A DNA stretch of 58,923 bases from Gemmataceae bacterium (GTDB taxonomy: Bacteria; Planctomycetota; Planctomycetia; Gemmatales; Gemmataceae): contig DATGZX010000367.1 of the NCBI GenBank assembly GCA_035296965.1, positions 1 to 58,923 of the forward strand. The letters run 5' to 3'. Position 1 is the first letter of the stretch; each line of letters begins with the position of its first letter. Positions 3,501-50,922 of the stretch are shown one piece after another. The position numbers and the translations under genes were made by a program. The notes beneath the pieces were generated by a model. The model had not been told where the DNA came from, did not search any database, and worked only from the letters and a program-made list of their open reading frames with translations.

Positions 3501-4438
3501 GTGGAAGTCCTAGCCGGGGTGCCGAGGCTCTGTGTCCCACTGCGCGGCATCCCGCTTTTCTCTGCTCCCCATGTCTCTTGAAAGCCCTGGATCAAAATCG
3601 CGCCAAATCGACAAAAAAAGCCGCCGTGCTTTCTTGGTAAGCACAGAGCGGCATGGAAAGTGACGAAGGGTAACCCAACCACTTGTCACCAGAGGAATTA
3701 TCGGTTTGTTAACCCAAGCAGCTTGAGGCGAACAGACAAAAACTGTCCAAATGGTCCGGCACAAGACTCCCTTGCGAATCGCGTGCGATGAATCGCGCTT
3801 GGTACCCGGCCGTATTAGCGGTTCGAACCGGAGCGCCATGAACTACGAGTGCGCAGCACTCGGGACGAATATCGAAGCCCCGAGCGAAGGGTCGGGACGC
3901 AAAGGTGCCGCTCAACGCAGCCCTTGCGGACCGACTCTGCGGTGACAGGGAGCGTGGCCAGACGGAAGCATTTCACACCGCAAAGGGCGCGAGCGGCCAC
4001 GCGTAATAAATTCACTTGGCACTTTGGGCTAGTCCGGCGGAATGGCCACAGCTCGCAGCTGTTTCGGAAGATTGTTACAGGCCGAACAGAGCCATTTCCA
4101 CGAAACTGGAGCCATCATTTCGCTTGCATTGCGGCGCAGGTGAGCTAGCGCATTAATGGGTGCACGCAACGACGCGGAGCGGCCGGAGCGGCGATCCAAC
4201 GCGGGGGCGTCGGATCGAGGGAAACTCCCTGAAGCGCAAGCCTTTCGATGGGGGGCGAGGATACGAACCGGGTTCTCGCGGAGCTTCCGAGGACACCCGG
4301 ATGGATCGCCAGAAGCGCGGCGTGGGCAGATTCTCTTTGGGCCAACCTGCATGCTTGACAGGGCGCTGCCCTCGATATCGTTCTGCTATATTAGCGGCCA
4401 GAGAGTCTGTGTATATCGCTGTACCTGGACTAGAGCGC

Positions 4439-6676
4439 ATGAGCCGCACGCAGACCCGCCGCCGACCGCCTGCCTTCAATCCGGCACTCCTCATTGGACT
4501 GACTCTCGTCCTCCTGACGCTCGTGGTCTACTATCCCGTCGTCAATAATCAATTTGTGAACCTGGACGACAACCTCTACGTCACGGGCAATCCTAATGTT
4601 CAGGCCGGCCTGACCAGGGAAAACATCGCCTGGGCTTTTACTTCGCTCACCTCTGCCAACTGGCATCCCCTGACCATGCTTTCCCTGCTGGCTGATAGCG
4701 AGCTTTCGAAAAAGGACCTGCGAACGGGAAGTCGGGGCCCGACGCTCTTCCACCTTACCAACCTGATTCTCCATTGCGCCTCGACCTTTGTGTTGTTTTG
4801 GGTCCTTCAGCGCATGACTGGCTGCCTGTGGAGATGCGCCTGGGTCGCGGCACTTTTCTCCCTCCATCCTCTCCATGTCGAATCTGTGGCTTGGGTAGCC
4901 GAACGAAAAGACGTGCTCAGTGGGCTGTTCTGGATGCTTTCGCTCCTGGCCTACCTGCGGTACGTCGAAGCTCCGAGCTGGCAGCGCTCGCTGATTGTGG
5001 CCCTGATGATGGCGTTTGGGCTGCTGGCCAAATCCATGCTCGTGTCGCTGCCGGTGGTGTTCCTGCTTCTGGATTGCTGGCCTCTGGGCAGGTTGTCTTT
5101 TGCGGGGACTTCCCCCGAAGCCTTCACGACCCGGAAGCCCCAGAGAGCGACCGAGAGTTTCTGGGTCCTCCTCCGCCAGAAGATACCGTATCTGGCTCTC
5201 AGCGGATTGTTTTGTGTGATCGCGTTGGTTGCCCAATGGCAAGGGGAGTCTTTGACGCCGTTCACAGTTAGCCCGATTGTGTCCCGGCTTCAACTCGTCC
5301 CTGTGGCCTACGTTGTCTATCTACGCAAGATGCTTTGGCCCTTCGATCTCGTTCCCTTCTATCCCTATCCCAGAGATGGTTTACCAGCCTGGCAAGTGGC
5401 CTGTGCGGCACTCCTGCTGATCGGCATCACTGTGCTTGCCTGGAGGGAAAGGCTGCGCCGGCCGTACCTCTTGATGGGTTGGCTCTGGTACCTGGTGACC
5501 CTGGTACCTGTGATCGGTCTCGTACAGGTGGGTCATCAGGCGTACGCGGATCGTTACACGTATCTTCCACTCGTCGGCATCTTTATCATGCTCGCATGGG
5601 GGTTTGCGGATCTAATAACGGGCTGGAGCAACCGCAGGGTCGTCTCGGCTGCCTTGGCCGTCTGCACACTCGTTGCGTGCTTGACGATCACGCGCACCCA
5701 GATCGGCTACTGGAAGGACAACTTTCATCTTTGGGAACACACCCTGAAGGTATCGCCCGAGAATTACCTGGCGCACAATAATCTTGGGAGCGCCCTGCTG
5801 GAAGCTAAAAAGCTTGACGAAGCGGTCGATCATTTCACGACTGCCGTCGCTCTCAATCCAAAGTACGACCGCCTTCGGTACAACCTTGCCATGGGATTGT
5901 TTCAGCAAGGGAAGATAGCACAGGCTTTGCAATGCATGCAGACTGCGCTCCAATTCAATCCCGACAATGACCGTGCCCACGTGGTGCTAGGCCGTCTATG
6001 CATGCTCCAGGGCCAGATGGAAGAGGCAGTGAGCCATTTTCAACAGGCGCTTCGCCTCAATCCGGACAATCCTGGAAGAGTGGACGTGTATTTGCTTCTG
6101 GGCCAGGCCCTCATGACCCAGGGTAACCCGGAAGAAGCGGCACAACAGTTCGCCCAAGTGACCCGGCTCGCTCCCGACAGCCCGGATGGTCACCAGCTGC
6201 TTGGCATCGCCTTGGGGAGGTTGCAGCGCTGGCCGGAAGCGGCAGCCAGTCTGGAGCGCGCGGTCGAGCTTTCTCCCAAGAATCCAACCTATCGGTGCGA
6301 CCTTGCTCTAGCGCTCTTCGAGATGGGCGAACCCCAGAGGTCGGCTGGACAATACAAAAAAGCCTCGGAATTGCAGCCTGACTGGATGGCCAAGTTCCAT
6401 GCGCTGGCCGGCAAACTGCTTGAAGCAAAGGGCGTAAGGCTGCCTGAAGGCCAACGAGCACTCGAGCTTGCCACCGAGCTCTGCCAGGCCAGCGCGTATC
6501 GAAATCCACAATTCCTGGAGACGCTGGCCGCCGCCTATGCCGCGACCGGCCAAAGAGAAAAAGCGTGGCAGACATCACAAAAAGCGATCGAGCTGGCTAC
6601 AGCGAGTGGACAAAAGGCGCTGGCGGAGCAAATCCGGGAGCGCGGAAAATCCTACCAGGACAGCCGTGCGAAATAA
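4439..6676 (+). CDS. TPR-repeat integral membrane protein of the DUF1736/TMTC-like (PMT-fold glycosyltransferase-like) type
   Basis: The N-terminal TM helix is followed by the motif NLDDNLYVTGNPNVQAGLTRENIAWAFTS...ANWHPLTMLS, which is characteristic of TMTC/DUF1736 proteins. There are about 10 TM helices in the first ~450 aa and a run of TPR repeats in the C-terminal ~300 aa. Start set at the Met beginning MSRTQTRRRPPAFNPALLIGLTLVLL; the track ORF extends further upstream. Confidence 0.65.
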   Translation: MSRTQTRRRPPAFNPALLIGLTLVLLTLVVYYPVVNNQFVNLDDNLYVTGNPNVQAGLTRENIAWAFTSLTSANWHPLTMLSLLADSELSKKDLRTGSRGPTLFHLTNLILHCASTFVLFWVLQRMTGCLWRCAWVAALFSLHPLHVESVAWVAERKDVLSGLFWMLSLLAYLRYVEAPSWQRSLIVALMMAFGLLAKSMLVSLPVVFLLLDCWPLGRLSFAGTSPEAFTTRKPQRATESFWVLLRQKIPYLALSGLFCVIALVAQWQGESLTPFTVSPIVSRLQLVPVAYVVYLRKMLWPFDLVPFYPYPRDGLPAWQVACAALLLIGITVLAWRERLRRPYLLMGWLWYLVTLVPVIGLVQVGHQAYADRYTYLPLVGIFIMLAWGFADLITGWSNRRVVSAALAVCTLVACLTITRTQIGYWKDNFHLWEHTLKVSPENYLAHNNLGSALLEAKKLDEAVDHFTTAVALNPKYDRLRYNLAMGLFQQGKIAQALQCMQTALQFNPDNDRAHVVLGRLCMLQGQMEEAVSHFQQALRLNPDNPGRVDVYLLLGQALMTQGNPEEAAQQFAQVTRLAPDSPDGHQLLGIALGRLQRWPEAAASLERAVELSPKNPTYRCDLALALFEMGEPQRSAGQYKKASELQPDWMAKFHALAGKLLEAKGVRLPEGQRALELATELCQASAYRNPQFLETLAAAYAATGQREKAWQTSQKAIELATASGQKALAEQIRERGKSYQDSRAK

Positions 6677-7185: not shown

Positions 7186-8526
<1,341 letters not shown>

Positions 8527-8911
8527 GGGACCGGGTGAAAACCTTACGGCCCTGTGCGCAGGCGAGGAGGGATCCGCTTCACCCGCGAGGACGAAGCGTT
8601 TGAAGCAGCGCAATAGGGAGTTCGAGTGCATAAGCATGAACGCGTCGCAGCCGGGCCCTCTTTGCTCGGCGCTGACACAAATATTCACGGATTCCGGATG
8701 ACTCATTGGCGTCACGCAGGCCACCGCGCCAGCCGAAACACGGAAATGGCCACGATCAGTCAAATCGAATTGCGGTCACGCTTTGCAAAGGGGCAAACCG
8801 CCTCCCGTCGTGCAAACGAGGATGTCGAGTTCAGGGCGACCTGGTAGTTGTTTGCGCGTGGGTGAACGACAGAAATCTTCTTCGTTCCGCTAACAGCCAT
8901 GCGAATCCGCT

Positions 8912-8944
8912 CCAGCCTGGTTCCTCACCAGGCTGGTTTTCATT
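8912..8944 (+). terminator. Intrinsic-terminator-like hairpin: 10-bp perfect GC-rich stem, 5-nt loop, then a T-tract
   Basis: The sequence is ccagcctggt-tcctc-accaggctgg followed by ttttcatttcc. It lies about 390 bp downstream of the Gfo/Idh/MocA stop codon. Confidence 0.5.
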
Positions 8945-8975
8945 TCCTGTCTCTCTCGATATACCTTTCTCCTGA

Positions 8976-9087
8976 GGGCGTGTTGAAAAAGGGGTCAGAC
9001 TCCTTGAGTTCGGCAGAGCCTGGTGTCTCAGAAATGGGCGGAGTGCCTCGATTCTCCAGGGGGTCTGACCCCTTTTTCAACACGCCC
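8976..9087. repeat. Palindromic element copy A: perfect 25-bp terminal inverted repeats (gggcgtgttgaaaaaggggtcagac) flanking about 58 bp
   Basis: The left arm at 8976-9000 and the reverse complement of 9063-9087 are identical. The 17-bp core TGAAAAAGGGGTCAGAC is shared with copy B at about 49155-49266. The core itself contains the mini-palindrome GGGGTCAGACCCC. Confidence 0.65.
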
Positions 9088-9126
9088 TGAGAACCGACCG
9101 CTCATTTTTACCAGGGAGAGCATCGC

Positions 9127-10293
9127 ATGGGCTTCTTCACCGGCCGGGTCAGCTTCCTGCGCTACCGCATTGAGCGCGCAGCCCCCAAGCTGTTCGGCCC
9201 CGAGCATCTGGAGAAGCTGGAGGCCCACGCTCCCGGCAAGCAGCGACTTCAGAGCAAGGATAGCACCGAGGCGGGTTGGACTGCGGGCGACGATATCCTC
9301 GACACGGACTTCGATCTCGCTAAAAACATCGTCAACGACACGCTGCACTTCGCGCTGCGTCTGGACACGCAACGATTGCCCGGCGACCTGCTGCGCGCCT
9401 ATACACGTATCGAACTGCAGGCCTTAGCCGCCGACAACCCGAGCGGCCGGCCCAGCCTCAAGCAAAAGAAACAAGCACGGGAGGCGGCCCGCGAGAGGCT
9501 GGAGGCCGAAGCCAAGGACGGCCGGTACCTGCGGCGGAAGGTATATCCCCTGCTTTACGATCGCCTCTCAAATGCCCTCCTCGTCGGTGCAACGTCGGGC
9601 GCCGTGCTGGATCACGTTCAAAAACTGTTCAAAGAGACTTTTGGCGCTAACCTCACGCTTATCGATGCCGGCCAACGTGCCATCGACAGCGGTCCGGCCC
9701 GTGCCGTGGCGGATGCCCGACCCTCCGAGTTTGTTGCCGGCAGCGGCGGAGGGGACGTCGCCTGGGCTCCCGACCCCGCCAACCCGCGCTACCTGGGCAA
9801 TGAATTCCTCTTGTGGCTCTGGTTTGTCCTGGAAGTGGAAGAGGACTTCGTCGCCCTCCCGGACAAGTCGGACGTGTCGGTCATGCTCGCCCGCACGCTG
9901 GTGCTGGATTGTCCTCGTGCCCAGTCTGGCCGCGCTAGCATCCGCAGTGACGCCCCAACCCGCTTACCTGAAGCTGCGCGGGCCATTCAGGCCGGCAAGC
10001 TGCCCCGCCAGGCCGGTCTGATCGTGGTACGCCATGGCCAGCAGTTCGAACTTACGCTGCAAGCCGAAACCTTGGCTGTGAGTGCCGCCAAATTGCCGGC
10101 TCTCGAGGAAGAGGACGACCGGGCTCTGCTCGAAGAGCGCGTCGGGCAAATCCGCCATTTGATCGAGACCTTGGACCTGCTCTATGAGGCGTTCCTGCAG
10201 AGGCGGCTGTCGGTCAATTGGCCCAAAGAGCTGAAGCGCGTGCAGCGCTGGTTGAAGCGCGACGACGGGAATCGTTTGGCGACGACGGCGTGA
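9127..10293 (+). CDS. rdgC: RdgC-like recombination-associated protein
   Basis: The N-terminus MGFFTGRVSFLRYRI resembles the RdgC start (MLWFKNLMVYRL). The conserved GW region and the central KKQAREAARERLEAEAKDGRY...LLYDRLSNALLVG block align, from memory, with the E. coli RdgC segment [31 protein letters not shown]. Total length of 388 aa fits. Confidence 0.5.
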   Translation: MGFFTGRVSFLRYRIERAAPKLFGPEHLEKLEAHAPGKQRLQSKDSTEAGWTAGDDILDTDFDLAKNIVNDTLHFALRLDTQRLPGDLLRAYTRIELQALAADNPSGRPSLKQKKQAREAARERLEAEAKDGRYLRRKVYPLLYDRLSNALLVGATSGAVLDHVQKLFKETFGANLTLIDAGQRAIDSGPARAVADARPSEFVAGSGGGDVAWAPDPANPRYLGNEFLLWLWFVLEVEEDFVALPDKSDVSVMLARTLVLDCPRAQSGRASIRSDAPTRLPEAARAIQAGKLPRQAGLIVVRHGQQFELTLQAETLAVSAAKLPALEEEDDRALLEERVGQIRHLIETLDLLYEAFLQRRLSVNWPKELKRVQRWLKRDDGNRLATTA

Positions 10294-11590: not shown

Positions 11591-11652
11591 AAACACATAG
11601 GCGGTTACAGGCGTGCTCGCTCCGCGGCACGTCTGTAACCGCCTATGTGTTT
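11591..11652 (-). terminator. Very long hairpin (26-bp stem with one mismatch, 10-nt loop) about 36 bp downstream of the last gene of the MoxR/vWA operon. Candidate terminator or structured RNA.
   Basis: The sequence is aaacacataggcggttacaggcgtgc-tcgctccgcg-gcacgtctgtaaccgcctatgtgttt. Confidence 0.4.
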
Positions 11653-11687
11653 ATGATCGAGCCCGTGATGGGCCACTCCTTGCCTGC

Positions 11688-13235
11688 TTATTTCTGGGGA
11701 GCCGTGTCCTTCTTTTCCGGCACGGCGTCCGCGTTCGAGGGCCGGATCAATTCGAAATACTTCTTGACCATCTGGCGATGGCCGAGCGGGATCGGCTCGC
11801 TTTCCAAAACGGTCTCGGATTCCTTCTTGAATTTCTGGTACTTTTCCTTGTACTCGCGGCTTGCTTGTTGCCTGGCTTCCGGTGTGGCCGTGGTTTCCAC
11901 TTCGGAATCGCCCTCGGCGCCTGGCGTGCCTGAGATTTGTTGATCGGTGCGCTTGCTGTTGAGTTTTGTTTTTTCGCCGTCGATATTGCCGCTCGCTGTC
12001 CGACCCCAGTTGCTCGAGGGGTTGTTCGACTTCTGGGGCATCCGCAGCTTGGCGCCGCCGTTCATCTGGCAGTTGCACTTGCAATCTTTTAACTCCTCAA
12101 TTTGCGAGAGGAGCAGATCATTCACCTTCCTGCGTTTGATTGCGTTGTTGACTTTCTTGGCGAGGTTACGAGAGGCTTTACCCACCTTGCCCTTGCCGCC
12201 CTTCAGGCTATCGGCCAGGTCGCCCACCGCTTCGCTCAGCGAGCCCTGGCCTGCTTCGCCCATCTGCTTGGCAAGCTGTTTGAGCTTTTCTTCCAAGGCC
12301 TTTGCTTCCTTGGGGGTCAGTTTCACCTCATCCAGTTTTTCAAGTTCCTTGGTAGCCTTCTCCAATTTGCCATCTTGAAGAGCCTTGCCGGCGCCTTCGA
12401 AGGCGGTGGAGGCAGCCAGGGCAGTCCCCAGCGACGAAAGCTGGCCGTCCAGGGCGGCGACGTTGAGTTCATTGGCGAGAGCCTGCACGTCCGCCTGCAT
12501 TTCGGACAATTTGGCCAGGGCTTCCTTCTCGTCGGTCCCCGGTTGAGTTAATTCTTCGACCTTTTGCAGAAGCTTTTCCAACAGCTCCTTGATACCCTTC
12601 TTCTCTTCGTCCGCCTTCTCGTCTTCCAGGTCCTGGGCCATTTCAGAGAGCTTCTTGTCCAGTGCTGCTAGCTTTTCTTTCTGCTCCAACACCATGGTGG
12701 CAATATGCTCAGGAGTTGGTGCAGGCCCGGCCTCGACTTGCTGTTGGGCCAGGGGCCAAGTGAGCAGAACGACGGCGGCCACAACTGCAGCCAGGGCGAG
12801 TTTCCACGACCGCGGTGTGCGTAGCGGTGCAACCTCGTGCGATTCGACCGTTCGCAGCTGGCTCAGAGCATCCGACATTTGTAAAGTGTGGAGGTCCGAT
12901 GGCGCATGTTGTTCCGAGAACGCCAGCGCCGTGACCGTGCGATCCTTGAGCAGGTAATGCTGGTCGACGGCGCTTGCTGCTCCGTGCCAACTCCGGCGCA
13001 GGACGAATCCTACGGCCAGCCCGCAGACGGGCCCTGCAAGCAGCACGCCAATGCGCATGACAAGGGACAGGTCGATTCCCGCGGACAGCCGGCCGATCCC
13101 CAAAACCACGCCCGCGCCGGCTGAGACGATCAAGCCGATCATCGCACAGCGCAGGGCAAAGAGCCACTGCTGCCTGAACCGGGTCGGCTTCAGAGCGGCG
13201 TAAACGGCCTGTTTCATCACCAGCCCTCCGTTCAT
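11688..13235 (-). CDS. Coiled-coil membrane protein, last gene of the Bat-like operon (BatD-like by position only)
   Basis: Two N-terminal TM helices (IGLIVSAGAGVVLGIGRL, IGVLLAGPVCGLAVGFVL), a third TM helix (LALAAVVAAVVLLTWPL), then about 300 aa of K/E/A/L-rich coiled coil. Start placed at the internal Met so that it overlaps the upstream vWA gene's stop by only a few nt. Confidence 0.4.
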   Translation of the reverse strand: MNGGLVMKQAVYAALKPTRFRQQWLFALRCAMIGLIVSAGAGVVLGIGRLSAGIDLSLVMRIGVLLAGPVCGLAVGFVLRRSWHGAASAVDQHYLLKDRTVTALAFSEQHAPSDLHTLQMSDALSQLRTVESHEVAPLRTPRSWKLALAAVVAAVVLLTWPLAQQQVEAGPAPTPEHIATMVLEQKEKLAALDKKLSEMAQDLEDEKADEEKKGIKELLEKLLQKVEELTQPGTDEKEALAKLSEMQADVQALANELNVAALDGQLSSLGTALAASTAFEGAGKALQDGKLEKATKELEKLDEVKLTPKEAKALEEKLKQLAKQMGEAGQGSLSEAVGDLADSLKGGKGKVGKASRNLAKKVNNAIKRRKVNDLLLSQIEELKDCKCNCQMNGGAKLRMPQKSNNPSSNWGRTASGNIDGEKTKLNSKRTDQQISGTPGAEGDSEVETTATPEARQQASREYKEKYQKFKKESETVLESEPIPLGHRQMVKKYFELIRPSNADAVPEKKDTAPQK

Positions 13236-19680: not shown

Positions 19681-19786
19681 AAGAGCAACGCTCCTTCATC
19701 TATGAGAGGAAGGTCTAAGGCAATCTGATGAGTCAGTTGCTTCACACTAAGGCCTGGCGTAATCTAAATGACCGTGTGCAAATAGG

Positions 19787-19843
19787 CTGATACTAGCCCG
19801 ACGCGTTAGCGAGGTCCTCGCTGACCCTTCGGGCTAGTGTCAG
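19787..19843. promoter_or_regulatory. Nested dyad symmetry in the divergent promoter region between moxR and the giant gene
   Basis: ctgatactagcccga ... tcgggctagtgtcag has 15-bp arms with one mismatch. It encloses a second palindrome, agcgagg-tc-cctcgct. Confidence 0.3.
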
Positions 19844-19950
19844 CGGAATCCTGCACGGTGATGTAGTTGACGTTATCGTCCGGCCCAGCGGAAGTCAAAC
19901 CGGTGCCGGCGGAATCTTTGCGTGCAGGCCTACAAAACGAGGGCCCTCCC

Positions 19951-46609: not shown

Positions 46610-47220
46610 CGCGGGCTGCACATTCTAATGGTGGCGGACCGTAGCAGCGGGCCGAGCAGGGACGCGGCCCGGAAGTCCTCCGCGCACGGGTCGAACATTT
46701 GAATGGGCCGCGTTTGCGCTTTTTCTGACAGGAGAAGAAGGCGCGGTCGGCGGTCCAATCACGGGCCCTGAGAACATGGTCCAGAGCGCAATGCCGGCAA
46801 CCCAGCGAAAGTTCATGGTAGTATGCCGCTGCTCCCGGAGGCACGGAGCAGGACGTTCCCCATCGGTGCGAGTCTTTGGGGCGAATTCGCCAGTGAATGA
46901 TTAGCAAGCTCTGTGCCAACTGGCTGGGCCGTCTCCGTTCTTCAGGTTCGGATGGTCGTAAGAATCGCAGCAGACTGGAGATAAAGGAGGTATGTCGTAT
47001 TCGGGATGCCGCTGTGCATGGCCACGAGTGTATCGATACCTGAACAGTTTGTTTCGCCGAAGGTTAAAACCTGGTTACGGGCGAGCCTCCGGGCCAGCGG
47101 CCGATGAAGCTAAATGGACAGTGACACTTGTCGATTTGGGCAAGTAATTGTGATGTATGGCTTCATTGGATCCTGCCAAACTTTACGCATGTTGAAGAGC
47201 ATCTCGGGATACCTCTCTCT

Positions 47221-47402
47221 TACGCCAAAGGCGTTACAGCGCAAAGCCCGGAGTCGCGACAGCGCACTCCGGGAATATCGCCGAGCTCGGTTGCATCTTA
47301 CACCGAAGGTGTTGCAGCGCAGAATTTCCACGAAGCCCCACACCCTCCGGGGTGGCGTCGCGTCCTCCGCAATCCCACATGCGCTGCAACGCCTACGGCG
47401 TA
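47221..47402. repeat. Three copies (two direct, one inverted, about 77-80 bp apart) of a ~23-nt motif made of a short palindrome plus TTRCAGCGCA. Two further palindromes lie between them.
   Basis: tacgccaaaggcgttacagcgca at about 47221. ttacaccgaaggtgttgcagcgca at about 47298. tgcgctgcaacgcctacggcgtag, the inverted copy, at about 47379. Also cccggagtcgcgacagcgcactccggg at about 47246 and caccctccggggtg at about 47341. The region lies inside a roughly 1-kb non-coding gap between convergent genes. Confidence 0.55.
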
Positions 47403-47652
47403 GGGATTCCTAGAATTGGCCCAGCTTGCCAGGTGCCGCCGGTCTTGCGGCCTGGCGCTCACGCAATGCCCCGCAGGCCGCGAAGCCGGGTCGTGATGCA
47501 AAGTGCAACAAGATGGCCAGACGGGCATTTTCAATTCAGCTCTTACAAGCTTAGTTGGATAGCGCCTCCTTTCTCCTATCCCAGGCAGGCCCAACTATCT
47601 GCCCGCAACGCACTTCCTTCATACGTTTCATCAAAAGCTGCCCAACTAAGAT

Positions 47653-49128
47653 CTATTCGATTGCATCCTCGTTCCCGGTGACAGTCCGGGCAATCGTGAT
47701 GCCTAGTTCGCGGAGCTTGGTTCGTAAGCTTCCGCGGGTTATTCCCAAGATCTTGGCCGCTTGCAACTGGTTGCCACCAGTGTGCTGCAGGACGCGCGTA
47801 AGCAGGATCCGTTCCACGCGGCGCAACAGTTCATCATAGAGATTGGCCGTCCCGCTTTGGAGTCGATCCTCGACGAGTTGTGCCAGGGCCGGAAATCCTT
47901 CGCTGCCGTTAAGTTGCTTTCCCTTCGCTAAGAGGATGGCGCTCTCGAGCAGGTGATCTTTATCGCGCAGCGAATCGGGTAGAAAATCTGGCAACAAGGT
48001 CGGGCCCACGGCCTGTAGGAGCGCCTGTTTGAGCGCACTCTGCAATTCGCGGACATTTCCCGGCCAGGAGTATTGCCGCAGGAGGTCGAGCGTTTCCGGC
48101 GCGACAGTCTGTACTTCTTTGAGCATTTCCAGGTTGAAGCGGTGAAGGTAGTGCTGTACCAATGCAATAAGATCGTCGCCGCGCTCGCGCAGCGGCGGTA
48201 GCCGGATCGTGAATACGCTCAATCGGTAGTACAAATCCTGACGGAATTTTCCGCTCGCGACCAGCGGTTCGAGGTCTTGATTCGTGGCTGCCAGCACGCG
48301 CACGTCCGTTTGAATGGTCTCGTTGCCGCCCAGTCTCTCGAACCGCTGTTCTTGCATGAGGCGCAGCATCTTGCTCTGAGTCAACGGCGACATGTCCGCA
48401 ACTTCGTCGAGAAACAAAGTGCCGCCGGAACATTGTTCGAATTTGCCGATGCGCCGGCGGTCCGCCCCGGTGAACGCGCCCTTCTCGTGGCCGAACAGCT
48501 CGCTTTCGAGGAGATGTTCCGGGATCGCGGCGCAATTGATTGCCAGGAATGGTCCGGCCGCACGGCGGCTGTGCTGGTAAATCGCCCGCGCCACCAATTC
48601 TTTACCCGTACCGCTCTCTCCGCCGATCAGGACCGTGACGTCCTGCTCGGCCACGCGGCCGATGTCCTTGTAGACCTTTTGCATCGCTGGGCAGCGGCCG
48701 ATGATCGCATCAGCGCGATCGTCCACCACCTCGGCCTCCGCGACGACCGCGGGAACGTGCATTTTCCTGCTAATGGCCAAAGCCTGGTCGACCACCTGCC
48801 TGAGCTGCGCTAATTCCAAAGGTTTCAGAAGGTATTCATAGGCCCCTAACTTGGTTGCCTCGATGGCCGTATCCGTCGTGCTCTTGCCGGTAATGAAAAT
48901 CACTGGGCTGCGGGCATCTAATTCGTGAAGCTTGCGCAACACTTCCAGTCCATTCATGTCCGGCAGATGGATATCCAGGATAATGACATCGGGGTGGTAT
49001 TCTTGAGCAAGGGCCAATCCCTCGGTCGCGGTTTCTGCTGTACGAATCTGCAGAGCGCTATCGCGGTAGGCCCGCCGGAAGGCCGCCAGAATCGACGGCT
49101 CATCATCAACGACCAAAAGTGTCGGCAT
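47653..49128 (-). CDS. Sigma-54-dependent two-component response regulator (NtrC family)
   Basis: A REC domain (LVVDDEPSI...DVIILDIHLPDMNGLEV), an AAA+ sigma-54 activator domain (GESGTGKELVARAIY..., the GAFTGA motif, Walker B) and a C-terminal Fis-type HTH. Confidence 0.9.
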   Translation of the reverse strand: MPTLLVVDDEPSILAAFRRAYRDSALQIRTAETATEGLALAQEYHPDVIILDIHLPDMNGLEVLRKLHELDARSPVIFITGKSTTDTAIEATKLGAYEYLLKPLELAQLRQVVDQALAISRKMHVPAVVAEAEVVDDRADAIIGRCPAMQKVYKDIGRVAEQDVTVLIGGESGTGKELVARAIYQHSRRAAGPFLAINCAAIPEHLLESELFGHEKGAFTGADRRRIGKFEQCSGGTLFLDEVADMSPLTQSKMLRLMQEQRFERLGGNETIQTDVRVLAATNQDLEPLVASGKFRQDLYYRLSVFTIRLPPLRERGDDLIALVQHYLHRFNLEMLKEVQTVAPETLDLLRQYSWPGNVRELQSALKQALLQAVGPTLLPDFLPDSLRDKDHLLESAILLAKGKQLNGSEGFPALAQLVEDRLQSGTANLYDELLRRVERILLTRVLQHTGGNQLQAAKILGITRGSLRTKLRELGITIARTVTGNEDAIE

Positions 49129-49154
49129 AGCGTATTCTCGCCTTACTTCCTCAC

Positions 49155-49266
49155 GAGCCTGCTGAAAAAGGGGTCTGACCCCCTACGAAGCTTCACTGAT
49201 TTCCTACCATCTCGGGGGTCTATCGCACTTCGTGGAAGGGGTCTGACCCCTTTTTCAGCAGGCTCC
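49155..49266. repeat. Palindromic element copy B, filling the 138-bp intergenic space between the sensor kinase stop and the response-regulator start
   Basis: gagcctgctgaaaaaggggtctgaccccc ... aaggggtctgacccctttttcagcaggctc: terminal inverted repeats of 28 nt with one mismatch. The inner sequence extends the stem (ctacgaag...cttcgtgg). It shares the core TGAAAAAGGGGTC[A/T]GAC with copy A at 8976-9087. Confidence 0.65.
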
Positions 49267-50922
49267 TCACACGGGCAGGGTAAACGTGAACACGGCCCCG
49301 CCCGCCGGCAGATTATCGCCTCGGATCGTGCCGCCGTGCGCTTCGATCAGCCGTTTGCAAATACTTAGCCCTAGTCCAACGCCTGTCTCCTTGCTGCTGA
49401 CAAACGGCTCGAACAACCGCTCGCGAATCCGCGGTGCAATACCAGAGCCAGTGTCGCACACGCGGATCTCAAGGGAGCGCTCCGGAGATTTGGCAGGCGT
49501 TCCATTGCCCGATGGAACGAACTCGCGGACATTCACTTGAATCGTGCCGCCGCGCGGCAGCGCATCGAGCGCGTTGAGGAGCAGATTCACCATCACCTGA
49601 TGAATCTGCTCAGGGTCAATCAAGACGGGGATTGGCTCGGCGGGCAAATCGGCGGCGAGCGTAACCCTCTGCCGGCGCGCTCGCCCCTCGACTAGCGACA
49701 GTGAGCGGCGCAAAACCGCAAGCAAGTCTGTCTGGCGACGTTCGGAACGCGGCGGCTTGGCGAAATCGAGGAACATCTGGATGCACTGTTCCATGCGCCG
49801 GACCTCGTGCTCGATGATACGCAAGTCTTCTTGCGGCAGGCCCACAGAGGCGCCCCCTTCCAGCCCGGTTTGCACCAGCATTTTGACGGAGGTGAGCGGA
49901 TTGCGCAGCTCGTGCGCCACACCTGCAGCCACTTGGCCGACCGCGGCCAATTGTTCCGAGCGGAGCACCTCGCGTTCCCGCTGCTGGAGTTGGTCGACGA
50001 TACGTTCGATCTCGGCCAGGACTCCTTGCAACTGGCGATGCAAATCCGGCAGGTCCCCATCCTCTTGCAGAGTGACGGAGCCGAGTTCTCGGTTGAGCCG
50101 GCCGGCTGCATCGCGGATGCCCACACTCAACTGATAAATGGAATGGCGCAAGCTCTGCGCGACGGCATATCCCAACAACAACCCGCTTAGTGGCGCACCT
50201 AGGCCGACGGCCAGCAGGCCCCACTTCAGTTGTTTGACGATCCTCTCGTTCTCGTTGTCGGATCTCTCGATCTGCCCAGCGTTATAAGCCCTTAGCTCCG
50301 TGCATGGGACGAGGACATCCTCCTTAACCTGGCGGGCAAGATCCTTGTCAAAATTTGCCTGGTCGACTTCAGTGAGTTCTTTACCGCGCTCCGCCCACCG
50401 ATCCAGGTATCTTTGGAATCCCGCTTCGATCTTGTTGACGTAGTCCTTTTCTGGATCATGATTAGCTAGGCGATTGGCATCTGCCAAGAATCCACGAGCT
50501 TCATCGTTCCGACCATTGATATCCTGCACCAGTCGATTGGGATGGTCGCGATTCGGCTGTTCAAGCTTGCTGATAATTTCTTTGGCTACCTTTTCGAGAC
50601 TGTGTGCCGCACTGGTGCTCTGCACATTCTCAGTCAGTTCCTCGGAGACCTTGACGTGCAGGCGGTTGAGGTACAAGACGGCCAGAATACAGACCCCTAC
50701 CAATGCCAAGCTGACGAGTACGGTCGGGGCCAACAACTTCAGCGCTAAGGGTCTGCTGAGCACGAGCTGCCTCGGGAGAGTGCGGCAAGGAACGGGAAAT
50801 TTGCTTCCTTCATTATAGGCGAGCCGGAGTGTGATTGGGGCCAAACGAGGGAAGGTTGAATCACCCGCGATATGGGAGCACGATTCGCTCTTGCCATCAG
50901 CGCAAAGAAAAACCCGCGCCAA
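49267..50922 (-). CDS. Sensor histidine kinase (TM, HAMP-like, HisKA, HATPase_c)
   Basis: TM helix near the N-terminus and a second TM helix (LLAVGLGAPLSGLLLGYAVA). The H-box VAHELRNPL and the N/G boxes in the C-terminus are present. The exact start is uncertain; the track ORF may begin too far upstream. Confidence 0.8.
   Translation of the reverse strand: MARVFLCADGKSESCSHIAGDSTFPRLAPITLRLAYNEGSKFPVPCRTLPRQLVLSRPLALKLLAPTVLVSLALVGVCILAVLYLNRLHVKVSEELTENVQSTSAAHSLEKVAKEIISKLEQPNRDHPNRLVQDINGRNDEARGFLADANRLANHDPEKDYVNKIEAGFQRYLDRWAERGKELTEVDQANFDKDLARQVKEDVLVPCTELRAYNAGQIERSDNENERIVKQLKWGLLAVGLGAPLSGLLLGYAVAQSLRHSIYQLSVGIRDAAGRLNRELGSVTLQEDGDLPDLHRQLQGVLAEIERIVDQLQQREREVLRSEQLAAVGQVAAGVAHELRNPLTSVKMLVQTGLEGGASVGLPQEDLRIIEHEVRRMEQCIQMFLDFAKPPRSERRQTDLLAVLRRSLSLVEGRARRQRVTLAADLPAEPIPVLIDPEQIHQVMVNLLLNALDALPRGGTIQVNVREFVPSGNGTPAKSPERSLEIRVCDTGSGIAPRIRERLFEPFVSSKETGVGLGLSICKRLIEAHGGTIRGDNLPAGGAVFTFTLPV

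Follow-up and report, generated by a model that had tools for sequence, protein, structure and literature searches.

Copy A and copy B, two palindromic elements in a 58,923-nucleotide contig of a Gemmataceae bacterium (GenBank assembly GCA_035296965.1, contig DATGZX010000367.1; the whole stretch is called the window below), belong to a newly recognised family of elements that consist of inserted DNA. Insertion duplicates a short target centred on TA or TNA, and the stop codon of an adjacent gene often serves as this target. The two copies are very probably mobile, non-autonomous elements. On balance we favour, with moderate confidence, the view that they are non-coding elements of about 110 bp resembling MITEs (miniature transposable elements with inverted repeats) or REPINs, inverted pairs of repetitive extragenic palindromic (REP) units, and that they are linked to TIRYT enzymes, a branch of transposases resembling the REP-associated tyrosine transposases (RAYTs). 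Elements of this kind are already known; unusual in this family are its outer arms, the duplication at stop codons and the association with repeats of the TIRYT type. The parts of the two copies and the genes on either side of copy B are:

8972-8976: left flanking direct repeat of copy A, CTGAG (minimal version TGA, 8973-8975); the pentamer recurs at 9087-9091
8977-9003: left arm of copy A, composed of GGCGTGT (8977-8983), TGAAAAA (8984-8990) and the mini-palindrome GGGGTCAGACTCC (8991-9003)
9004-9059: spacer of copy A, 56 nt, partly self-complementary and non-coding, the distal part of the predicted hairpin
9060-9086: right arm of copy A, composed of GGGGTCTGACCCC, TTTTTCA and ACACGCC
9087-9091: right flanking direct repeat of copy A, CTGAG
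47653-49128, minus strand: sigma-54-dependent response regulator gene, the downstream cistron, 138 bp from the kinase gene here and 22 bp in the empty-site relative
49150-49154: flanking direct repeat of copy B, CTCAC (plus strand) or GTGAG (operon strand), found twice here and a single time in the empty site of locus L243
49155-49182: left arm of copy B, composed of GAGCCTGC, TGAAAAA and GGGGTCTGACCCC
49183-49237: spacer of copy B, 55 nt
49238-49265: right arm of copy B, composed of GGGGTCTGACCCC, TTTTTCA and GCAGGCTC
49266-49270: second copy of the duplicated target of copy B, CTCAC, whose central TCA (49267-49269) corresponds to the kinase stop codon TGA
49267-50922, minus strand: histidine kinase gene (HisKA and HATPase_c by Pfam), the upstream cistron of the interrupted operon junction

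The recent insertion of copy B can be read from a relative in which its site is empty. In the window, copy B separates the histidine kinase stop codon from the start of the gene for the cognate sigma-54 response regulator, whereas in L243, whose response regulator is 97% identical to that of the window, only 22 bp separate the kinase stop from the regulator start and the junction reads CCCGCGTGAGGAAGTAAG. On the operon strand, the junction of the window reads CCCGTGTGAGG, followed by the element (AGCCTGC...GCAGGCT) and then by CGTGAGGAAGTAAG. Comparison of the empty with the filled site shows that the whole of copy B, including its outer arms, is inserted DNA, and the duplicated target is GTGAG(G), 5-7 bp in length, with the kinase stop codon TGA at its centre. 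A scheme in which a dimer of the core enters a pre-existing “target palindrome” formed by the outer arms was rejected, because the outer arms were never found as an “empty” palindrome and are absent from the empty site. Copy A is present in a 99% related strain (L246) and missing from an 85% relative (L247), the upstream region of which is otherwise too diverged for an exact reading of the junction. The central G of the pentamers flanking copy A is identical in the direct sense and not complementary. An 89-codon open reading frame (ORF) at 8706-8975 terminates exactly at the TGA flanking this copy.

At the same kinase-regulator junction, L244 holds a different palindrome with 24-nt arms at 92% (9957-10013) and L245 an AT-rich palindrome with arms of 18-29 nt (6349-6446), which suggests that the position directly after the kinase stop is a hot spot for hairpin insertions.

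Both copies share a modular structure. A preliminary description of the window had placed the two elements with inverted arms at these positions, and this was borne out: copy A has a perfect 25-bp inverted repeat (8976-9000 and 9063-9087), which extends to 35 nt with 91% complementarity (8972-9006 and 9057-9091), and the 28-nt arms of copy B are 96% complementary (49155-49182 and 49238-49265). Each arm consists of an outer segment followed by the conserved block TGAAAAAGGGGTCWGACCCC. The 17-mer TGAAAAAGGGGTCWGAC, rightly named there as the common core, occurs four times in the window, once per arm, against 0.01 occurrences expected from shuffled sequences. The mini-palindrome GGGGTCWGACCCC was likewise found in all four arms, with the reservation that the left arm of copy A has one mismatch. 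The outer 7-8 nt differ between the two window copies (GGGCGTGT and GAGCCTGC), and complementarity is perfect within either copy. As to the interiors, which had also been described as different, copy A (112 nt) and the reverse complement of copy B (111 nt) share 82 identical columns, and the spacers alone (56 and 55 nt) share 34. Thus, the interiors are related and copies A and B are diverged relatives. In agreement with the earlier statement that they are not two copies of a recently transposed element, we regard them as diverged subfamily members. ORFs that cross the elements are spurious only, so that the elements are small and non-coding, with terminal inverted repeats (TIRs). Folding confirmed the expected hairpin structure: each copy is predicted to form one long hairpin, with −79.2 and −73.4 kcal/mol as RNA (z about −10) and −39.8 and −37.3 kcal/mol as DNA (z about −9) for A and B, respectively. 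When single-stranded, a single arm would present a small G+C hairpin beside an A/T run.

The 17-mer was used for a scan of one genome per species, in which at least 113 stretches were found. By calculation, about 140 isolated matches are expected by chance in the 596 Gb on both strands, so that single hits in unrelated phyla mean little. Among the matches listed, the complete form with paired arms is confined to Planctomycetota, where it is multi-copy in at least eight genomes, each with an outer-arm and spacer variant of its own. Planctomycetaceae ABC1.50 carries at least 17 complete elements of 81 bp in 13 loci, Planctomycetota MFD01213.bin.2.22 at least 16 copies of a family 1 and at least three of a family 2, and further copies are found in casp150-mb.69, Pirellulaceae MFD09964, OFTM264, Mariniblastus and others. 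The paired-arm elements of these genomes measure 57-113 bp, and the spacers of the family 40-70 nt. Copies from one genome are nearly the same in sequence, and their spacers are found in both orientations. The outer arm segment of 7-10 nt is constant within the family of one genome and differs between genomes, and the spacers behave likewise. Besides the two variants of the window, CAGCCCGT, AGGCTATC, AAGCTATC, GGACGTGTT and GAGCGTTCGG were found; at least seven distinct outer-arm sequences are each near-perfectly complementary within their element, while TGAAAAAGGGGTCWGACCCC is the same in all. Relatives contain full units AAAAAGGGGTCWGACCCCTTTTT. Decay forms comprise truncated half-copies and a fully palindromic deletion derivative of 51 bp (L064), and single arms in Planctomycetota loci are truncated copies and not ends of insertion sequences (ISs).

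These findings, with dozens of paired copies in Planctomycetota genomes, support the earlier proposal of a family of hairpin-forming REP- or MITE-like repeats. That the two window copies arose by chance or by a local inverted duplication, with no family behind them, is of negligible probability. Only two copies in 59 kb and the chance-level occurrence of isolated 17-mer matches in unrelated phyla would fit this explanation, which is refuted by the excess of the 17-mer over expectation in the window together with the paired copies in Planctomycetota. Outside the paired-arm form, a bare palindrome of 27 bp without outer arms was found in Clostridium and Eggerthellaceae, where it can be read as a simple terminator, and in arrays in an alphaproteobacterium. 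In the latter, the AT-rich LBMAG (L013, L018, L062, L098), bare AAAAAGGGGTCWGACCCCTTTTT is multi-copy, in arrays spaced by about 140 bp, and Eggerthellaceae UBA3686 (L008, L049, L075, L080, L091, L099) contains many copies of AATGTGAAAAAGGGGTCWGACCCCTTTTTCACATT. A search of the plasmid collection in distant blastn mode gave no match to the element, and viral contigs gave four isolated single matches, which are uninformative. Literature string searches with the core sequence and its variants found no match, and a 2024 review of prokaryotic MITEs includes none from Planctomycetota.

Flanking sequences in one of the multi-copy genomes behave as direct duplications. In family 1 of MFD01213, the flanking tetranucleotides match in the direct sense at 13 of the 14 informative positions and in the inverted sense at one (Fisher p=0.0027), with pairs such as CTAA/CTAA (three times, around elements of both orientations), GTAG/GTAG and TTAA/TTAA. 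Family 2 of MFD01213 and locus L002 are flanked by TAA/TAA. From these comparisons, and with the flanks in ABC1.50 and casp150 taken into account, families differ in the length of the duplication, which is 2-5 bp and in every case lies around TA or TNA. Of 48 elements surveyed, 14 are immediately next to the stop codon that ends an ORF of 100 or more amino acids. The intergenic placement suggested by the preliminary description holds for most of them: 35 lie between ORFs and three at the edge of a locus, whereas ten overlap a greedily called ORF of at least 100 amino acids. Neighbouring genes are arranged in tandem, convergently (13 of 48) or divergently.

A host regulatory hairpin that is immobile and kept for its function, be it a bidirectional terminator, an mRNA-stabilising 3′ structure or a small RNA, is very improbable. 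Each arm, read outward on its own strand, does give GGGGTCWGACCCC followed by TTTTTCA, the predicted folds are very stable, many elements lie directly after stop codons or between convergent genes, and the bare palindrome of Clostridium and Eggerthellaceae, as mentioned, resembles a terminator. Dispersed terminator-like repeats are known as well, the predicted likeness here being confined to individual arms. However, immobile host structures would not show presence/absence polymorphism with target duplication between strains related at the 97% level, nor near-identical multi-copy families within genomes, and a strong terminator at the position of copy B, inside an operon junction, would break the coupling between regulator and kinase. 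The arms are not picked up as terminators by a simple scan, and the T-run is sequestered by the long hairpin when the transcript is complete; as predicted DNA, the arm hairpins are weak (−4.3 and −6.3 kcal/mol) and the long hairpin competes with them. No Rfam family reached its gathering score in the window, the best sub-threshold hit being mir-9447 (40.8 bits vs 67), and the E-value mode returned only sub-threshold microRNA and small nucleolar RNA models, as expected for any long hairpin. The structured small RNA offered as an option in the preliminary description is disfavoured by this result, by spacers in both orientations, by all gene orientations and by the polymorphism with target duplication. 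Its alternative that the arms are parts of terminators only does not apply either, because the arms belong to the inserted DNA.

The conserved part of the arms connects the family with a group of transposase genes. RAYT-like genes with TIRs on their flanks were reported by Di Nocera et al. (2013, PMC3733652), who named the units “TIRtrons” and the enzymes “TIRYT”. Many of these TIRs have the sequence GGGGWSAS, and some are dispersed as singles, dimers or clusters, R. baltica included. According to Quentin et al. (2018, PMC6006769), most TIRYTs belong to subclass 2.1 of TnpA-REP, which has a C-terminal helix-turn-helix (HTH). The core GGGGTCAG satisfies GGGGWSAS exactly and is present in all four arms of the window on one strand or the other. 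We used RB2408 from the supplement of Di Nocera et al. as protein query. The Y1 gene of R. baltica has TIRs of 50 nt that contain AAAAAAGGTGTCAGGTACCTTTTT, the right one overlapping the stop codon, and a Y1 gene of strain CA13 has AAAAGGTGTCGGACACC on either side. In the loci chosen by protein (L114-L116), six of seven AAAGG[GT]GTC 9-mers lie within 300 nt of the Y1 gene, a zone that makes up 6% of the sequence.

Metagenomes were searched with the pattern GACCCCTTT near conserved RPRGRP codons, and most of the 120 loci returned were irrelevant. In L155, a Y1_Tnp gene has exact GAAAAAGGGGTCWGACCCCTTTTT on both sides, the 5′ copy lying outside the search pattern. Whole two-armed doublets of 100-125 bp stand on both sides of the Y1 genes of L180 and L201/L187, with hairpin variants nearly identical to the core, GGGGTCAGGTACC and GGGGTCGGGAGTC, respectively. 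Next to the Y1 gene of L193 there is one hairpin on one flank and a doublet on the opposite flank, and this doublet occurs again about 600 bp away. In L013, which belongs to a different phylum, a Y1 gene adjoins an array of the palindrome. The Y1 proteins score above the Pfam cut-off for Y1_Tnp, and they match the NCBIfam model of the REP-associated tyrosine transposase with E-values of 1e-15 to 1e-20, below its equivalog cut-off. In five Y1 proteins Pfam did not confirm a C-terminal HTH, and Bac_DnaA_C was listed only for a second Y1 gene in L116. The link to REP-associated tyrosine transposases suggested by the preliminary description finds support: RAYT-like Y1 genes flanked by the same core exist elsewhere, and there is none in the window. 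The arms are probably homologous to TIRYT-associated repeats.

Several observations concern Y1 genes and further repeats near them. The gene P0042 was rejected as a multi-copy Y1 gene: it occurs on 11 contigs, which represent a single locus seen in ten samples. In this locus (L252:687-810), seven tandem 19-nt units beginning with AAAAGGTGTC lie about 1.2 kb upstream of the Y1_Tnp gene, which also has a hairpin, CATAAAAGGTGTCAGGTACCTTTTCGG, 190 nt upstream; L115 has two tandem units of the AAAAGGTGTC type. Such tandem units look like an array of putative binding sites. In MFD01213.bin.2.22, a second type of repeat, GGAAAAGGGGACGCGGACAGTT, adjoins two tandem C-terminal fragments of a Y1_Tnp gene (L027:4930-5290), and the start of an intact Y1 gene is preceded by GAAAATGGGGACATTC (L027:7850-8000), so several TIRYT-type systems appear to coexist in this genome. 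A C-terminal Y1_Tnp fragment in L029 (3918-4100, residues about 158-222) begins some 20 nt past a complete element with outer arms (3811-3907); this element may have landed in a TIRYT gene or have recombined with one.

We hypothesize that the conserved block would serve as the recognition hairpin of TIRYT-type enzymes (RAYT-like Y1 HUH proteins with a C-terminal HTH, subclass 2.1) and that a TIRYT enzyme encoded elsewhere in the genome would mobilise the elements in trans, in the manner proposed for RAYTs and REPINs. Both the architecture of the elements and the doublets flanking Y1 genes fit the REPIN-RAYT analogy. TIRYT may be the mobilising enzyme, a proposal that we make tentatively. We are more doubtful of the stronger version, which seems unlikely, that TIRYT enzymes move two-armed hairpins by a pathway leaving short duplications at TA/TNA, stop-codon-like sites. 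Canonical Y1 HUH transposition, as in IS200/IS605, produces no target duplication. Because target duplications are not expected of Y1 chemistry, an IS5-like DDE transposase is a serious rival. A partial reconciliation would be that one guide specifies both the target and a cleavage motif, of which the element bears one copy; the window copies agree with this scheme, and MFD01213 agrees with it poorly, because variant flanks match each other there.

The lack of duplication in canonical Y1 transposition is not the only point that speaks against our preferred explanation. The hairpins and doublets flanking Y1 genes have neither outer-arm segments nor visible duplications, and neither the window nor 1.84 Mb of loci contained a Y1 gene with a dispersed family's outer arms on its flanks. 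Only the 5′ sides of L155, L180, L193 and L201 count as independent evidence, because the search pattern required a 3′ motif. The flanks in ABC1.50 and casp150 have the form STAG...CTAS and, beyond TA, show eight direct vs ten inverted matches and hence no direct signal. Copy number in this lineage is low, with two copies in the 59 kb of the window and none in 72 kb from four relatives.

The elements could instead be ordinary MITEs of DDE type, that is, deleted or assembled derivatives of an IS of the IS5 superfamily (IS5/IS427/IS1031/ISL2-like), whose transposase would bind the terminal 15-25 bp, while the common G+C hairpin would be cargo or coincidence and TIRYT would not be involved. We consider this possible, though rather less probable than a link to TIRYT. 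In its favour are the real target duplications, which measure 2-5 bp and have TA/TNA or YTAR at their centre; such duplication lengths and targets are associated with subgroups of the IS5 family (ISfinder, reviews by Siguier). The termini start with G(A/G)G or CAG, and GCCTGTTGAAAAA resembles, as judged by eye, the terminal repeat of IS903, GGCTTTGTTGAATAAATC, a string attested in the literature. Moreover, the hairpins beside Y1 genes have neither outer arms nor duplications, so that the sites at which the transposase truly acts could be the outer arms. However, no DDE-bearing element with matching ends was found in the 1.84 Mb of loci or in the window. The outermost bases vary by family and an internal block of 20 nt is conserved throughout the phylum, which is the reverse of the usual DDE pattern, and this internal block is exactly the motif enriched around Y1 genes. 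Candidates for an autonomous copy, with arms 450-4000 bp apart and complementary outer segments, were rejected, as they were only pairs of separate small elements. The ORFs between neighbouring elements are ordinary genes and include no transposases, and a tblastn search of the collected loci with E. coli IS5 InsH gave no match to an IS5 transposase.

Comparison with known systems shows the same mixture. With the REPINs described by Bertels and Rainey (2011, PMC3116915) the elements share the inverted pair of hairpin units, the spacer of tens of bases and the folding into one long hairpin, a unit that is a short imperfect palindrome (20-40 bp in REPINs), and the lack of coding capacity; in other Planctomycetota genomes they are also multi-copy and mostly intergenic. 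Singles arise by decay, internal deletion gives a single long palindrome (L064), and doublets flank related Y1 genes. In contrast to REPINs, there is no conserved unpaired GTAG/CGTC tag at the 5′ end of the unit: the window copies are flanked by CTGAG and CTCAC, those of relatives by NTAN, and GTAG...CTAC was found only in some copies of the ABC1.50/casp150 family. Further differences are the additional genome-specific outer arms beyond the hairpin unit, the enzymes of the TIRYT branch, which fall below the NCBIfam RAYT equivalog cut-off, and the target duplication, of which the sections of the REPIN paper considered here (PMC3116915) make no mention. With TIRtrons (PMC3733652, PMC6006769), the elements share a motif that meets GGGGWSAS (GGGGTCAG), flanked RAYT-like genes with a C-terminal extension and the occurrence as singles, dimers and clusters. 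The repeats of those two papers, however, are adjacent to genes and “moderately abundant”, and the portions drawn on here report no outer arms, target duplications or polymorphism. Near subclass 2.1 genes, Quentin et al. (PMC6006769) state, REP-like sequences were not found, whereas doublets flank the genes of L180, L201 and L193 here.

MITEs derived from DDE elements (Correia/NEMIS; IS5/PIF-Harbinger “Tourist-like”) are likewise small and intergenic, with TIRs, a short TA/TNA duplication and a hairpin in the transcript; they differ in that here no parent IS or DDE transposase was found in the window and collected loci, and the conserved part is internal and common to the flanks of Y1 genes. 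The 38-bp terminal repeat of the Tn3 family, GGGGTCTGACGCTCAGTGG..., present as a 38-mer in more than 5000 plasmids, has the core GGGGTCTGAC as its first ten bases. Tn3 also makes duplications of 5 bp. However, GGGG is the end of the Tn3 element, whereas here it lies 15 nt inside the inserted DNA, and there is no likeness past the ten bases. Since the empty site places the shared 10-mer inside the inserted DNA, identity with the Tn3 terminal repeat was rejected.

The window has 60% G+C and contains hallmark genes of Planctomycetota (PSCyt2/PSD1, DUF1501, DUF1583, Tad pilus genes and a TPR protein of 3,899 amino acids). Its proteins recur on metagenome contigs from JGI and ENA; among named relatives, Gemmataceae are the closest. 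No transposase genes of any kind were found in the window by Pfam, gene calls and Y1 and IS5 searches. Copy A lies within a gap of 600 bp between a gene for a GFO/IDH/MocA oxidoreductase (7186-8526) and an RdgC-like gene (9127-10293). As the preliminary description had stated, it follows a terminator-like structure, a hairpin with T-run that lies 30 nt upstream (8912-8942). Between the oxidoreductase gene and copy A, about 385 nt (8527-8942) contain no Pfam-supported ORF and no Rfam match; they are closed by this strong terminator-like hairpin (8912-8936) plus TTTTCATTT and could represent a long 3′ untranslated region or an unannotated small transcript.

Further repeats and hairpins of other types were observed in the window. 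Three copies of another REP-like unit of 23 nt, TGCGCTGYAACRCCTNNGGYGTA, are found at 47221-47402 (within about 46,990-47,650), in about 540 bp downstream of the response regulator gene that are missing from the 97% relative L243. Their stem varies by compensatory change (ACACC/GGTGT vs ACGCC/GGCGT), and two of them form an inverted pair 58 nt apart. An imperfect palindrome of 115 nt (19758-19872; arms of 57 nt, 74% complementary, 1 nt between them) lies directly upstream of the gene for the 3,899-residue TPR/DUF1581/DUF1583 protein, which starts at 19867. A hairpin at 11591-11652 (26-nt arms, 96% complementary, 10-nt loop) partly overlaps the 3′ end of an ORF on the minus strand (11605-12084).

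In conclusion, the family marks sites, such as the kinase-regulator junction, where a very stable hairpin entered an operon. REP/BIME elements (BIME, bacterial interspersed mosaic element) in E. coli protect or attenuate transcripts (literature cited in PMC3733652). By analogy, the predicted hairpin of −73 kcal/mol that has come to lie between the cistrons of kinase and regulator may attenuate read-through or shield the message upstream of it. For annotation, the family accounts for many spurious small ORFs and contig breaks in assemblies of Planctomycetota. RAYT-like transposases of the TIRYT branch are common. The family is natural material for tests of their substrate and mode of action, as it combines a recognition-like hairpin common to the flanks of Y1 genes, young multi-copy families and a clean insertion polymorphism. 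If TIRYT enzymes do move these elements with target duplication, their chemistry would be unlike the duplication-free single-strand “peel and paste” of IS200/IS605, and the orphan TIRYT/RAYT subclass 2.1 would gain a demonstrable substrate.

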